Origin: Ignavibacteriota bacterium
GTDB taxonomy: Bacteria; Bacteroidota; Ignavibacteria; Palsa-1295
Direction of reading: 5' to 3'
DNA length: 64,000 nucleotides
Assembly: GCA_963787835.1 (NCBI GenBank)
Contig: CAWBEI010000005.1
Location: 80,998 to 144,997 of the forward strand
Below the pieces are notes generated by a model. That model did not search any database and was not told the origin of the DNA. It was given only the letters and a program-made list of their open reading frames with translations. A program made the translations under genes and the position numbers. How positions within the stretch are numbered: the stretch's first letter is position 1; the number at the start of each line of letters is the position of its first letter. Shown one piece after another: positions 2,704 to 47,394 of this stretch.

Positions 2704-3912
2704 ATGGCAAAAGCTAAATACGAACGTTCTAAGCCGCACGTAAATGTCGGCACGATCGGCCATGTCGATCATGGCAAGACCACGCTCACTGCGGCGATCA
2801 CGATGGCGCTCGCCAAGAAGATGCCGGGCAACGAGGTCCGCACTTTCGATTCTATCGATAATGCTCCGGAAGAGCGCGCTCGTGGAATCACAATAGCAAC
2901 GGCACACGTCGAGTACGAGACGGGGAACCGTCACTACGCGCACGTTGACTGCCCAGGCCACGCTGATTATGTCAAGAACATGATCACGGGTGCCGCGCAG
3001 ATGGACGGCGCTATCCTCGTCGTTGCTGCAACGGACGGCCCGATGCCACAGACCCGCGAGCACATCTTGCTTGCACGTCAGGTCGGTGTGCCGCGTATCG
3101 TAGTATTTATGAATAAGGTTGATGCCGCCGACCCTGAGCTTTTGGAACTTGTCGAGCTTGAAATTCGCGAGCTTCTCAGCAAGTACGAATTCCCCGGCGA
3201 CGAAATTCCGATCATTCCAGGCTCTGCGCTCAATGCGTTGAACGCCGGCGCCGATCCGGCCGCAGGTGTGGACGATCCACGACTCGCATGCATCTATAAT
3301 CTTATGGATGCCGTCGATAGCTACATCCCGACTCCAGTTCGCGATGTTGATAAGCCATTCCTCATGTCGATCGAGGACGTATTCTCGATCACGGGTCGTG
3401 GCACGGTGGGAACCGGACGTATCGAGCGCGGTAAAGTTCACATTCAGGATGAAGTGGAAATCATCGGACTCGGTCAGCACAAGAAGTCGGTTGTTACCGG
3501 TGTCGAGATGTTCCGCAAGGAAATGGAAGAAGGACAAGCTGGCGATAACGTTGGTATTCTTCTCCGTGGCGTAGAAAAAACGGATCTGGAGCGCGGTCAG
3601 GTTATCGCGAAACCGGGTTCGATCACGCCGCACACGAACTTCGATGCGAAAGTCTATGTGCTTTCGAAGGAAGAAGGCGGACGCCACACTCCATTCTTCA
3701 ATGGCTATCGCCCGCAGTTCTACTTCCGCACCACGGACGTAACCGGCGTTGCAACATTGCCGGATGGCGTAGAGATGGTCATGCCTGGCGATAGCGTCCA
3801 GATGAAGATCGAGCTTATTTCGCCGATCGCTATGGAAGAAGGACTCCGTTTCGCTATTCGCGAAGGCGGTCGCACGGTCGGAGCAGGCGTAGTAGATAAG
3901 ATCACGAAGTAA
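2704..3912 (+). CDS. tuf: Elongation factor Tu
   Basis: 402 aa; [23 protein letters not shown]-motifs; full-length EF-Tu. Confidence 0.97.
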
Positions 3913-4290: not shown

Positions 4291-4419
4291 GTCATTGCGA
4301 GGAGGAGATTGCGGAGCGAAGCGGAGCAATCTCCGACGAAGCAATCTCTTCGTCGATACGCACGAGATTGCTTCGTCGAACGGATCTCCCTTCGGTCGAT
4401 CCGTTCTCCTCGCAATGAC
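4291..4419. repeat. Family A MITE-like repeat (GTCATTGCGAGGAG...CTCCTCGCAATGAC), copy 1
   Basis: 129-bp element with 14-bp terminal inverted repeats and an internal inverted pair cgacgaagcaatc/gattgcttcgtcga. It sits between rpsJ and rplC and ends 18 nt before the rplC ATG. Confidence 0.7.
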
Positions 4420-4437
4420 AGGACAACAGCGAAGAAT

Positions 4438-5073
4438 ATGAGCGCACTATTAGGTAAAAAAGTTGGTATGACCGGCATCTTTGACGATCAGGGACAATAT
4501 GTTCCCGTGACCGTCATTCAGGCTGGCCCATGCTTCGTAACTCAGGTCAAGACGAAAGATGCCGATGGCTATGATGCCGTTCAGCTTGGTTTCGAGGACA
4601 TGGATGAGCGTAAGCTGAACAAGCCCGAAAATGGTCATTTCGCAAAAAGCGGCACATCGGCGAAGCGGTATCTGAAGGAATTCCGGTCGTTTCCCGATAG
4701 CGAACTTGCGTCCATGACGCCGGGCAAAGCGATCAACGCAGCGGACCTTTTTCATGAAGGCGATACCGTGCATGTATCCTCGACCTCCAAAGGCCGCGGG
4801 TTCCAGGGCGTTGTGAAGCGCCATCATTTTGGTGGTGTCGGTCAAACGACGCACGGTCAATCCGACCGCCAGCGTGCGCCGGGATCGATCGGCTCGTCGA
4901 GCTATCCTTCCCGCGTATTTAAAGGACAGCGTATGGGTGGTCGAATGGGTGGCAATCGCATTACCACGCGAAATCTTCGCGTGATGAAAGTGCTGCCGGA
5001 ACAAAATTTAGTGCTCGTGAGCGGATCGTTCGCCGGGGCGAAGAACCAACTGGTGGAGATCGTAAAAGCTTAA
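4438..5073 (+). CDS. rplC: 50S ribosomal protein L3
   Basis: MSALLGKKVGMTGIFDD...; the longer ORF-track start runs through the family A repeat, so the start was chosen at the conserved L3 N-terminus. Confidence 0.92.
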   Translation: MSALLGKKVGMTGIFDDQGQYVPVTVIQAGPCFVTQVKTKDADGYDAVQLGFEDMDERKLNKPENGHFAKSGTSAKRYLKEFRSFPDSELASMTPGKAINAADLFHEGDTVHVSSTSKGRGFQGVVKRHHFGGVGQTTHGQSDRQRAPGSIGSSSYPSRVFKGQRMGGRMGGNRITTRNLRVMKVLPEQNLVLVSGSFAGAKNQLVEIVKA

Positions 5074-22011: not shown

Positions 22012-22275
22012 ATGACATTAAACGAAATCCATAACGTCCGGGAAAAACTGCTGGCTGATCTCGATTCTATTACGGGCGCAGAAGAGCTTGAAGCGTTCAA
22101 GCTGGCGCATCTCACTCGCAAAGGGACGATCGCCGCAATGTTCGACGATCTCCGATCTGTTTCGAAGGAGGAGAAGCCGCTCGCTGGAAAAGAGCTAAAT
22201 CTGCTTCGCCAATCGGTTGAACAGCGATTCGCTGAAGTAGCTCAAGCACTAAATATTAAGAAAGAAGAGGAATGA
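22012..22275 (+). CDS. pheS N-terminal helical domain as a separate 87-aa ORF (out of frame with downstream pheS)
   Basis: GC-rich; KLAHLTRKGTIAAMFDDLRSVSKEEKPLAGKELN resembles the PheS N-terminal domain; stop overlaps the next ATG in a different frame. Confidence 0.45.
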   Translation: MTLNEIHNVREKLLADLDSITGAEELEAFKLAHLTRKGTIAAMFDDLRSVSKEEKPLAGKELNLLRQSVEQRFAEVAQALNIKKEEE

Positions 22276-23633
22276 TTATAATTAAAGAACCTCGAATTGA
22301 GCTAACTCCTAAACAGCTTGAAGAGTACAAAAAAATATACACTTCGGTAGCTGAGCAAGCCGGCTCTGTAAATAACCAAATGCTCACATATGGGCAACAA
22401 GCAAATCCTTATATTGTCAAGGAAATTGAAGAACTTGCCAAAGTTACTAATAATCTGAGCTATTCTAGTTCCGAAGTATACGTCACGTCCCAGACAATAG
22501 GAGAATTGCCTTTTTCTAATGCAATCCAATACTTTAGGAATGACTTAGCAGAATTCCAAGACCACTTTCAGAACTTACTCAATAATGTTCAGTCACCGGC
22601 TGATCTAGAAGTATCTCGTTTAACTCTTGAAGCTGAAAAAGGGCCAATTAAGTTTGTCGAGAAAGTAATTTTGGGAGGTGCCCCTAAAGCCGCCAAGAGA
22701 GAAATTGGAAGAAATCTCAATGAATTGAAGGTTATCTTGGAGCAAGAGTATCAGAATATTAAGTCTAAGTTAAAACCACTAATCAAATTAGATGCAGAAA
22801 TTGATCTGTCGATGCCAGCGCGGACGGTACCAGTCATAACTCCGGGACACGAGCATCCTTTGATGAAGACGCTGAACGAGATGATATCCATTTTCGAGCG
22901 CATGGGATTTGCCGTTGAATATGGGCCGGAGATCGAGGACGATGAGCATAATTTTGGCAAGCTGAATTTCGCGCCCGACCATCCTGCGCGAGATATGCAG
23001 GATACGTTTTTTGTGAAGCCTTCCTTCAATTATGTAGCGCCGGCGTCCTCGCCGGTTCCCCTTGCAGAGGGAAGGGGACAGGCGGGGACGCCTGCGCTAC
23101 AGCCATTACTATTGAGGACGCACACATCGCCAGTTCAGATTCGGCTGATGGAAAAGCAGAAGCCGCCCGTCCGGGCGATCATGCCGGGGCGGGTATATCG
23201 CAACGAAGCAGCAAGTGCTCGGAGTGCAGTTGCATTCTTCCAGTTAGAAGGACTTGTTATCGATAAGGGCGTTACGATGGCAGACCTAAAAGGCATACTG
23301 CTTTCCTTTGCAAGGCAGTTTTTTGGGAGCGATGCAAAGATCAGACTTCGCCCAAGTTTCTTCCCATTTACCGAGCCGAGCGCCGAAGTGGATGTAAGCT
23401 GTTACATCTGCGGCGGCAAAGGCTGCCGCGTATGCCAAAACACAGGATGGCTGGAAATATTGGGTTCCGGAATGGTCCATCCGAATGTGCTAAGAGCATG
23501 TGGAATCGATCCAGAAATATATACCGGCTACGCGTTCGGCCTCGGAATTGACCGCACGGCAATGATGCGTTATGGTGTCAGCGATATTCGGGATTTCTTC
23601 GAGAACGATTACCGATTTCTGGAACAATTTTAG
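22272..23633 (+). CDS. pheS: Phenylalanine--tRNA ligase alpha subunit with AT-rich N-terminal replacement segment and 23-aa repeat-encoded insertion
   Basis: Catalytic core HPARDMQDTFF, LLRTHTSPVQIR, FPFTEPSAEVD, GLGIDRTAMMRYGV. The first ~165 codons (22272-22770) are ~35% GC versus ~55% in the flanks. Codons 255-277 are encoded by a family D palindromic repeat. Confidence 0.85.
   Translation: MIIIKEPRIELTPKQLEEYKKIYTSVAEQAGSVNNQMLTYGQQANPYIVKEIEELAKVTNNLSYSSSEVYVTSQTIGELPFSNAIQYFRNDLAEFQDHFQNLLNNVQSPADLEVSRLTLEAEKGPIKFVEKVILGGAPKAAKREIGRNLNELKVILEQEYQNIKSKLKPLIKLDAEIDLSMPARTVPVITPGHEHPLMKTLNEMISIFERMGFAVEYGPEIEDDEHNFGKLNFAPDHPARDMQDTFFVKPSFNYVAPASSPVPLAEGRGQAGTPALQPLLLRTHTSPVQIRLMEKQKPPVRAIMPGRVYRNEAASARSAVAFFQLEGLVIDKGVTMADLKGILLSFARQFFGSDAKIRLRPSFFPFTEPSAEVDVSCYICGGKGCRVCQNTGWLEILGSGMVHPNVLRACGIDPEIYTGYAFGLGIDRTAMMRYGVSDIRDFFENDYRFLEQF
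23033..23101. repeat. Family D 69-bp palindromic element inserted in-frame within pheS
   Basis: tgtagcgccggcgtcctcgccggttcccc...ggggacgcctgcgctaca. A sibling copy lies intergenically at 46458..46526. 69 nt is 23 codons and is translated as VAPASSPVPLAEGRGQAGTPALQ. Confidence 0.7.
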
Positions 23634-45892: not shown

Positions 45893-46438
45893 TTAAATTT
45901 TTTCCTTGTTCATGGTAACCAAATTCATACGCGTGGCTCCATTCTTTTGTAATGCGCGCATTACATCGTTGATCGTGCCGAACGTGACGGCCGAATCTGC
46001 ATTGATCGCAAAGCGCATCGAGGGATTCTGTAAGCGGGCTTGCAGCACGACGGTTTCGAGCGTTGCCTTCGATACCACGACTCCAGCCTTCATTGCAAGT
46101 TCAGCATCGGTGAACGGCTGACCCGTTTTCGGGTCGAGAAGATTGAGCGGCTTATAGACCGGCGCGCGATCTTTCTCATTCGAAAGCCCGAATTCGATGA
46201 CGGTATCGACACGGCCATCGGGTTGGGGTTTCAACCCAACTTCCACGGTCGCGATATTTGCGTCGGGAAGCTTTGTGGTATCCGCGACAGCCACCGGAAG
46301 CATGATCTGCAACGGTTCATCCGATTGGGGCTTGAATTTTGCCGTGAGCATGAAGAACGTCAGGAGCAAAAAGCCCACATCGACCATCGGCGTCATGTCG
46401 AGGCGGTAACTGTGGCGTTTTATTTTATTCTTTGCCAT
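45893..46438 (-). CDS. exbD: Biopolymer transport protein ExbD/TolR (second copy)
   Basis: RLDMTPMVDVGFLLLTFFML motif; 181 aa. Confidence 0.85.
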   Translation of the reverse strand: MAKNKIKRHSYRLDMTPMVDVGFLLLTFFMLTAKFKPQSDEPLQIMLPVAVADTTKLPDANIATVEVGLKPQPDGRVDTVIEFGLSNEKDRAPVYKPLNLLDPKTGQPFTDAELAMKAGVVVSKATLETVVLQARLQNPSMRFAINADSAVTFGTINDVMRALQKNGATRMNLVTMNKEKI

Positions 46439-46457: not shown

Positions 46458-46526
46458 TGTAGCGCCGGCGTCCTCGCCGGTCCCTGCATTTGAGGCAGGG
46501 GAACCGGCGAGGACGCCGGCGCTACA
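46458..46526. repeat. Family D 69-bp palindromic element (intergenic copy, exbB|exbD)
   Basis: tgtagcgccggcgtcctcgccggtccctgcatttgaggcaggggaaccggcgaggacgccggcgctaca: a near-perfect ~30-bp stem. Confidence 0.7.
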
Positions 46527-46529
46527 TTT

Positions 46530-47324
46530 TTACGCAGAAGCTTTCGTGAGAAAGCGTGTCTCGAGCGTTTCGACGAGGTTCAGGCAGGCTTCATCGATCG
46601 TGTAGATAAAGCTATCGACCTTCGTGGTGAAGAAGTTGTAGAACACGATGGCGATGATAGCGCCGAAGATTCCAAAGGCGGTATTGACGAGCGCCTCGGA
46701 AATACCGATGGAAAGCTGCGTCGCGCTCGCGGCACCGGCTTCGCCAAGTGCACGGAAAGAGCGGATCATACCAAGCACCGTTCCCAAGAGACCGACCATC
46801 GTGGAGATGGAGGCGATCGTCGAAAGGCCGATGAGGTTACGCTCCAGGAGCGGGGTTTCGATGCTCGTGGCTTCTTCGATGGTGCGCTTTACTTCTGCGA
46901 GCTTAAGTGCGGCGGCCATGCCACCCTCGTTACGTACTTTCTTGAAGCTTTCGAGACCGGCGCGAAGAATATTCGCTACGGTGCCGCGCTGTTTGGAGCA
47001 AAGGTCGATCGCTGCATCGACGTTACCGGCATCGAGGCTCTTTTCGACGTTCGCGAGGAACTTACCGAGATCGCCCGATCCCTGCGCCTTCGCAAGCGAA
47101 AAGAAACGCTCGATGATAAAGGTGAACACCATGATGGTTAGCATCAGCAGCAGCGGCACAATAATACCGCCGGTATAGATGATACCCATGACATCTTTCG
47201 GATGCTCTTTCGTGGCCGCATCCGCAAAATGCGAATCCGCACCGAAAATGAAGGAATAAATGAGCACAGCGGCGACAAACGCTGCCGCGATGACGATCGA
47301 TACAAAAAGAGAATTTTTCTTCAT
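46530..47324 (-). CDS. exbB: MotA/TolQ/ExbB proton-channel protein
   Basis: Three TM helices; LSTIASISTMVGLLGTVLGMIRSF motif. Start trimmed to MKKNSLF, because the longer ORF reads through a family C repeat. Confidence 0.85.
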   Translation of the reverse strand: MKKNSLFVSIVIAAAFVAAVLIYSFIFGADSHFADAATKEHPKDVMGIIYTGGIIVPLLLMLTIMVFTFIIERFFSLAKAQGSGDLGKFLANVEKSLDAGNVDAAIDLCSKQRGTVANILRAGLESFKKVRNEGGMAAALKLAEVKRTIEEATSIETPLLERNLIGLSTIASISTMVGLLGTVLGMIRSFRALGEAGAASATQLSIGISEALVNTAFGIFGAIIAIVFYNFFTTKVDSFIYTIDEACLNLVETLETRFLTKASA

Positions 47325-47370
47325 GATTTCGTAGGTCGGTGCTTCCAGCCCGACATTTTGTGATTGTTTA

Positions 47371-47394
47371 TGTAGGGACGTGCTGTGCACGTCC
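47371..47394. repeat. Family C palindromic repeat copy
   Basis: tgtagggacgtgctgtgcacgtcc in the exbB 5' leader. Confidence 0.6.

Follow-up and report, generated by a model that had tools for sequence, protein, structure and literature searches.

A GTAG-type REP doublet lying in frame in a length-variable loop of pheS in an Ignavibacteriota bacterium

The pheS gene of an Ignavibacteriota bacterium carries, within its catalytic core, a 69-bp palindromic element that is a GTAG-type REP doublet (REPIN), a member of a family associated with RAYT transposases in sister genomes. Very probably, this REPIN is tolerated where it lies, in a disordered, length-variable loop of the PheS protein. The original prediction, drawn from the window (the whole 64-kb stretch of DNA analysed here), had pointed to the palindrome without naming the family. 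The sequence of the element is as it was quoted then, and its assignment to a dispersed repeat family is supported; the family was found both in the window and in related metagenome-assembled genomes (MAGs).

A REPIN consists of two inverted REP hairpins, each headed by GTAG, with a short spacer between them. It is non-autonomous; its copying, presumably in single-stranded form, is attributed to RAYT, a HUH/Y1 transposase with a single-copy gene. One such copy would have landed in the pheS codons of the surface loop between the DTFF and RTHTS β-strands. The insertion may be tolerated because its length is 3 × 23 nt, because it is stop-free in two of the three frames, and because the frame used yields a Pro/Ala/Ser/Gly-rich, probably disordered peptide in a naturally length-variable loop. 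Selection would act as a filter only, the surviving insertions being those that lie in frame, in loops or linkers. Most likely, neither the insert peptide nor the mRNA hairpin has a function of its own, and the pheS REPIN appears to be neutral. Mobilisation by a RAYT is likewise suggested, the one line of support being the presence/absence contrast between the window and its relative L123 (87% nucleotide identity).

Anatomy of the element and of its second copy

Both copies in the window are laid out as 23 + 23 + 23 nt. Each arm is composed of a GTAG head, two bases, a 6-bp GC stem and a TCCT loop. Two inverted pairs of the 23-nt arm TGTAGCGCCGGCGTCCTCGCCGG, four occurrences in all, are present in the window; no match was found in 100 dinucleotide-preserving shuffles of the window (0 expected). 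A short imperfect palindrome with a GTAG head is a REP unit, and two inverted REPs with a short spacer that form one long hairpin are a REPIN. The window arms have the former structure and both window copies have the latter. A search of the window with Rfam placed no family over the element, only two tRNAs reaching the gathering score.

As compared to type A, the right arm of the pheS REPIN has three differences. Two of them are the compensatory change of a C-G to an A-T pair that recurs in the family, and the third is a common loop variant (TCCC). The three mismatches are thus the marks of a subfamily (type B), and not of decay. Among 57 arms collected from the window and related genomes, arm positions 9 and 22 covary, with C-G in 45 arms, A-T in 11 and no one-sided change, implying that the short REP hairpin of each arm, and not only the long hairpin, is a conserved unit. 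The RNA of the pheS copy is predicted to fold with −56 kcal/mol (z = −8.7), and that of the second copy with −66 kcal/mol (24 + 6 bp). None of 200 shuffles matched the predicted folding of either copy.

The second copy separates exbB from exbD in a minus-strand gene cluster, tonB-exbB-exbD-exbD. It had been described as a near-identical sibling of the pheS copy. Its position, its length of 69 bp and the near-identity of the arms were recovered, but the identity over the entire element is only 56/69 (81%): the copies agree over their first 30 nt, their right arms show three differences, and their centres are unrelated. The features of the window are collected in Table 1, together with the genes in related genomes that hold the family in frame.

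Table 1. Features of the REPINs and their surroundings in the window, and genes that carry REPINs in frame
Feature	Position	Strand	Details
REPIN (inverted REP doublet), in frame in pheS	23033..23101	.	69 bp; encodes VAPASSPVPLAEGRGQAGTPALQ
Left REP arm, type A	23033..23055	+	T-GTAG-CG, then hairpin CCGGCG-TCCT-CGCCGG; exact match to family 23-mer
REPIN spacer	23056..23078	.	variable among copies, partly self-pairing
Right REP arm, type B	23079..23101	-	CAGGCG-TCCC-CGCCTG
pheS ORF	22272..23633	+	453 aa, open through REPIN; class II core aa 178-453 by Pfam
Codons of variable PheS loop	23013..23111	+	aa 248-280, DTFF to LRTHTS
Second REPIN copy	46458..46526	.	69 bp, within 91-bp exbB-exbD spacer; both arms type A and perfect
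exbB, upstream neighbour of second copy	46530..47390	-	MotA_ExbB family (Pfam)
exbD, downstream neighbour of second copy	45893..46438	-	Pfam
In-frame REPIN host: pheS			
In-frame REPIN host: metH			linker, B12-binding to activation domain
In-frame REPIN host: gatA			23-aa insertion vs solved structure 3h0l
In-frame REPIN host: coaBC			linker between two domains
In-frame REPIN host: TMEM260-like membrane protein			
In-frame REPIN host: N6/N4 DNA methylase (L079)			two copies
In-frame REPIN host: Type ISP restriction enzyme (L109)			two copies + half copy (LVAPASSPSN)
In-frame REPIN host: BNR protein			

The PheS loop that accommodates the element

The element begins at codon position 3 of pheS and its 69 nt equal 23 codons, and the ORF stays open through it. 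Preservation of the frame, which the original prediction had claimed, is thereby confirmed, as are the placement of the insert between the DTFF and LLRTHTSPVQ blocks and the encoded peptide, VAPASSPVPLAEGRGQAGTPALQ. The tryptic peptide expected from the insert is PSFNYVAPASSPVPLAEGR. The loop was further said to vary in length among PheS enzymes, and in 115 of 120 homologues, those with both flanking motifs, it ranges from 6 to 39 aa. The element adds 23 residues to give a loop of 33 aa in the window, as compared to 15–17 aa, such as VKPSADWKAGETAPLL, in most relatives of the clade among the 120 closest PheS sequences. In 111 of the 115 homologues with a delimitable loop, the element is absent.

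When the 23 residues were mapped onto PheS structures, the solved structures aligned on both sides of the insert, and only the loop lay between. The residues between the flanks number about 2 in Pseudomonas aeruginosa PheS (4p71) and 19 in Thermus thermophilus PheS (1b70, residues 154–172, numbered from the 1b70 alignment), the latter situated just ahead of His178 and Ser180. The Thermus enzyme, which is active, thus bears 19 extra residues at the same fold position, between DTFW and LLRTHTS. In contrast to the window loop, its loop is not derived from a repeat, and it is shorter. In an AlphaFold2 prediction built on 49 homologues, residues 257–274 of the window protein have a pLDDT below 50 and form a coil, flanked by strands at 246–248 and 279–281. 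The PheS core shares 95% protein identity with that of L123 but only 67% identity at four-fold sites, indicating that pheS is under purifying selection. The view that the repeat insertion is tolerated within this gene therefore stands, given that the element is in frame, pheS is open and the loop is variable in length.

Separately from the REPIN, the 5' part of pheS contains an AT-rich insertion of ~530 bp (22252–22780; GC 0.37 vs 0.50), in place of a linker of ~36 nt that joins the core to the N-terminal domain of PheS. The N-domain native to the gene has become a separate 87-aa ORF (22012–22275), which ends in an ATGA overlap with the ORF that starts at 22272. The insertion supplies a new start, 85 aa without homologues and a second, divergent PheS N-domain (~25% identical) that is fused in frame to the core. 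This insertion is not present in L123, L116, L117 or L118. Neither a homology search with its 176-aa product nor blastn and tblastn searches of the DNA of all sampled loci returned a homologue.

The REP family, its transposase and comparable systems

The exact arm was found in at least 115 stretches of public genomes, in a scan with one genome per species. Twenty-one of these stretches are in five Ignavibacteriota/Kapaibacterium MAGs related to the window. The other hosts among the matches listed, tallied by phylum from the record titles, are Acidobacteriota (~76), Pseudomonadota (12), and Verrucomicrobiota, Planctomycetota and Chloroflexota (two each). Three of the five related MAGs, of the same organism group (L116, L117 and L118), are syntenic with the window at ~78% nucleotide identity. 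As in the window, the element of the related Ignavibacteriota genomes is an inverted doublet, of 63–87 bp. The window holds two copies in 64 kb, and the related MAGs hold at least 5–8 each in the sampled loci.

In sister genomes, a cognate RAYT is flanked by the REPs. A 166-aa ORF of L031 (3873–4373) lies between REPINs at 3778–3848 and 4415–4484. It scores 87.9 bits on the NCBIfam equivalog REP_Tyr_transpos (NF047646, cutoff 80) and 24.1 on Pfam Y1_Tnp (PF01797, cutoff 23), and contains the motif HIHLL. Its orthologues are 88% (L113), 91% (P0121, a metagenome sequence) and 69% (palsa_1295, P0122) identical. In L113 the RAYT is located 33 bp from a REPIN, and the same genome has a REPIN in its own pheS. 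Within the 64-kb window, tblastn with E. coli RayT and the Ignavibacteriota RAYT detected no RAYT.

At one locus the RAYT is variably present: between the same two flanking genes, L022 (3912–3987) has a single REPIN without RAYT, as compared to the REPIN-RAYT-REPIN arrangement of L031 (3778–4484). This contrast is consistent with either the loss of RAYT by recombination between the flanking REPINs, or the state before its arrival. A second small palindrome, GCATCG-N4-CGATGC, was observed alone and nested in the right arm of some REPINs, including the 87-bp pheS variant of L117 (L117 10562–10577 and 4777; L030 4540 and 5709; L120 10547). The nested form suggests that one repeat has inserted into another.

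Outside the Ignavibacteriota, the exact 23-nt REP is common to MAGs of six phyla, mostly Acidobacteriota from peat and soil among the matches listed. In Acidobacteriaceae, the REP leads a pair of unlike hairpins in tandem (…GCCGGCGTCCTCGCCGGCTGTCGTGCGGGCGTCCTCGCCCGCAC), instead of an inverted doublet. The RAYT-like genes beside the REP (L093, L075, L115, L053) are only ~30% identical to the Ignavibacteriota RAYT. In L075, L115 and L093 of the Acidobacteriaceae, the RAYT-like ORF extends at its 3' end into the REP, which encodes the C-terminus of the protein (...AGEDAGAT). The sharing of the REP by six phyla may be caused by transfer between phyla or by deep conservation.

In the sampled Ignavibacteriota loci, 10 of ~23 independent doublets (~43%), pheS being among their hosts, are intragenic and in frame, in hosts that were confirmed as genes by Pfam. 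Nine of the ten are read as xVAPASSPVP and one as CSAGVLAG, while the third frame contains TAG. By our own calculation, the 9:1 bias has a two-sided binomial p of ~0.02. Extragenic location, a classical trait of REPINs, is shared neither by the pheS copy of the window nor by these 10 of ~23 copies in relatives, and it is a habit of the REPIN family rather than a mechanistic requirement. One further candidate, a miaB-like gene in L056, was rejected as an in-frame case: the ORF after the REPIN looks like the start of another gene, which by eye we take to be of the xanthine-dehydrogenase type, at the contig end. There, at 2851–2923 (end of PLYO01000047.1), a REPIN joins the miaB-like N-terminal fragment to the next ORF, by either a rearrangement at the REPIN or an assembly join at the repeat.

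The classic analogue of an in-frame palindrome is provided by the Rickettsia palindromic elements (RPEs), which lie in surface loops and are compatible with function, RPE-1 being longer (~100–150 bp); Ogata et al. 2000 reportedly found RPEs in frame in many protein genes, including essential ones. The likeness is one of behaviour only, since the host of the RPEs is an obligate intracellular alphaproteobacterium, whereas the present REP is of the GTAG type and from a different phylum. RPE-4 and RPE-6, which are treated as REPs by Di Nocera et al. 2013 (PMC3733652), belong to the CGTC type, and CGTC repeats have no association with transposase genes.

The definition of REPINs and RAYTs goes back to Bertels & Rainey 2011 (PMC3116915). 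Like the systems described there, including that of E. coli RayT/YafM, the present one has GTAG REP hairpins in inverted doublets that form a long hairpin, appears to be a dispersed multi-copy family, and comprises a small HUH/Y1 transposase gene flanked by the repeats. It differs in that classical REPINs are extragenic, whereas ~43% of the copies sampled here are intragenic and in frame, and in that the host belongs to the Ignavibacteriota and not to the Proteobacteria. According to bioRxiv 10.1101/2022.05.22.493013, the inheritance of REPIN-RAYT systems is mostly vertical, whereas the exact 23-nt REP is present in six phyla. Intragenic GTAG/CGTC REPs, singles and dimers that encode 20–30 aa within ORFs, were documented in PMC3733652. 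More than half of the intragenic GTAG REPs were dimers or grouped repeats, the hosts included tRNA synthetase genes (glyS of X. oryzae), and Opitutus terrae had the most copies. Neither a frame bias nor occupancy of the same site across species was reported in that study. The lists in PMC3733652 do not contain pheS, the window REP or Ignavibacteriota, and its supplements do not contain 'phenylalanyl', 'GTAGCGCC' or 'PALQ'.

History of the pheS site and rival explanations

The comparison of pheS with its relatives gave a divided answer on the presence of the insertion: it occupies the same codon in three other species, and is absent from the closest relative found, L123. In P0002/L118, P0003/L117 and P0004/L116, the REPIN is also in the same phase and orientation, with lengths of 69, 87 and 63 bp, respectively. 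L123, which is 87.4% identical to the window in nucleotides over 20 kb, has an ancestral-type 16-aa loop, VKPKADWKTGDDSPLL, and its divergence from the window at this site is limited to ~100 nt (~23004–23105). The nearest relative of L117, L124, also lacks the pheS REPIN. In a neighbour-joining tree of the PheS core, REPIN-bearing and REPIN-free sequences are interleaved.

The REPIN-bearing alleles share the architecture of 7 aa + REPIN + PLL. Six codons (KxGxxx), which are present in every REPIN-free allele, are missing from all of them, indicating that more than a clean insertion took place. The four codons upstream of the REPIN are different in each REPIN-bearing allele. Between species the REPIN arms are 89–96% identical, as compared to 47–56% at the four-fold sites of pheS, and judging from these alignments, pure neutral vertical decay does not explain the conservation of the arms. 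The predicted folding of the pheS REPIN ranges from −41 to −56 kcal/mol across the four species. Decay is visible in the L116 copy. In a sister clade (P0013/L120 and P0005), a degenerate insert has the same boundaries; aligned to the 87-bp variant, it outscores all of 2000 shuffles. Shorter remnants of the insert were found in P0009 and P0028. The similarity of the spacers of the window and L118 ranks within the highest 4% of background values, which is only borderline. No further REPIN-bearing pheS allele was detected in metagenome contigs by pattern searches with the left and the right junction. The REPIN-free loops (KAGETA) were considered as REPIN remnants and rejected, as the WK...PLL loop also occurs in distant relatives outside the colonised clade.

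These facts fit either a single old event or repeated gain at a hot spot. According to one reading, which is possible but far from assured, a single old REPIN replaced the tip of the loop, and gene conversion with other REPINs kept its arms uniform. It would have persisted as a presence/absence polymorphism, or been spread among related species by short-patch recombination. The common layout, the shared loss of KxGxxx and the decayed L120 allele with the same boundaries argue for such a history, as does the spacer similarity of the window and L118; the L117 copy, 87 bp long and with a nested hairpin that also occurs at L030, represents another REPIN subfamily, which suggests conversion. Against this history, the REPIN-bearing PheS sequences do not form a monophyletic group. 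In the core tree every one of them has a close neighbour without a REPIN, and nucleotide comparison bore this out for the window (L123) and for L117 (L124). Moreover, the divergence from L123 stays within ~100 nt and no longer imported tract is seen, and the differences in the upstream four codons also speak against a single origin.

Alternatively, the REPIN may have been gained repeatedly and independently at one hot spot in several lineages, an account that is just as possible. The patchy distribution with REPIN-free sister lineages, the lineage-specific left junctions, and the young-looking arms, which match the family consensus in the window, L117 and L118, would be expected from it. However, each gain would have had to repeat the boundaries, the phase and the six-codon loss, and no conserved target motif and no target-site duplication are found beside 23 copies.

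A broader reading, rather unlikely in our judgement, joins the pheS site to the rest of the family. It combines a recurrent or maintained landing site in pheS, through regain at the same codon or through an old trans-species polymorphism homogenised by conversion, with a family that supplies a preferred Pro/Ala/Ser-rich linker (VAPASSPVP...) to many genes, the core housekeeping genes pheS, gatA and coaBC included, and with the spread of the REP across at least six soil phyla, which would run counter to an essentially vertical inheritance of REPIN-RAYT systems.

The pheS REPIN could also have been exapted and be kept by selection, which we regard as improbable. The hairpin (−56 kcal/mol in the mRNA) or its DNA form would then regulate pheS, through ribosome pausing, RNase III cleavage, or the binding of RAYT or a host factor, or else the peptide would serve PheRS. 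The arms are indeed far better conserved between species than the synonymous sites of pheS (44/46 positions vs ~0.5), strong folding is kept in all four species, and the same codon position is filled in each of them. On the other hand, a recent insertion, or gene conversion with other copies, could also account for arm conservation. The element is missing from the closest relative and from most of the clade, the L116 copy is decaying, and what is left in the L120 lineage, P0009 and P0028 are a degenerate remnant and shorter ones. Furthermore, the in-frame presence of the same element in many unrelated genes agrees better with filtering than with function.

Finally, an origin as a MITE of a DDE-type insertion sequence, as a chance palindrome or as an assembly artefact is highly improbable: the terminal inverted symmetry taken alone would fit a MITE, but target-site duplications are absent, with no consistent direct repeat beside 23 copies, the GTAG head, internal hairpin and adjacent RAYT point to a REP, and a Y1 RAYT is the only transposase that neighbours any copy, while the arm match in 0 of 100 shuffles argues against chance, and the same insertion in independent assemblies of three other species against an artefact.

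A REPIN tolerated in a variable PheS loop, our preferred explanation, belongs to a kind of event that is already documented, and the conceptual gain is modest. The new elements are the host phylum and the gene, the high intragenic share with its frame bias, and the patchy occupancy of the same site. The case is a checkable example of a REPIN in the catalytic core of an essential aminoacyl-tRNA synthetase from a little-studied phylum, and its presumed transposase has been identified in sister genomes. For annotation, it warns against taking such GC-rich inserts of 20–30 aa in MAG proteins for assembly errors, as they are real. With a large share of REPINs surviving inside genes, in one preferred frame, this lineage offers a useful natural experiment on how protein structure filters selfish hairpin DNA.
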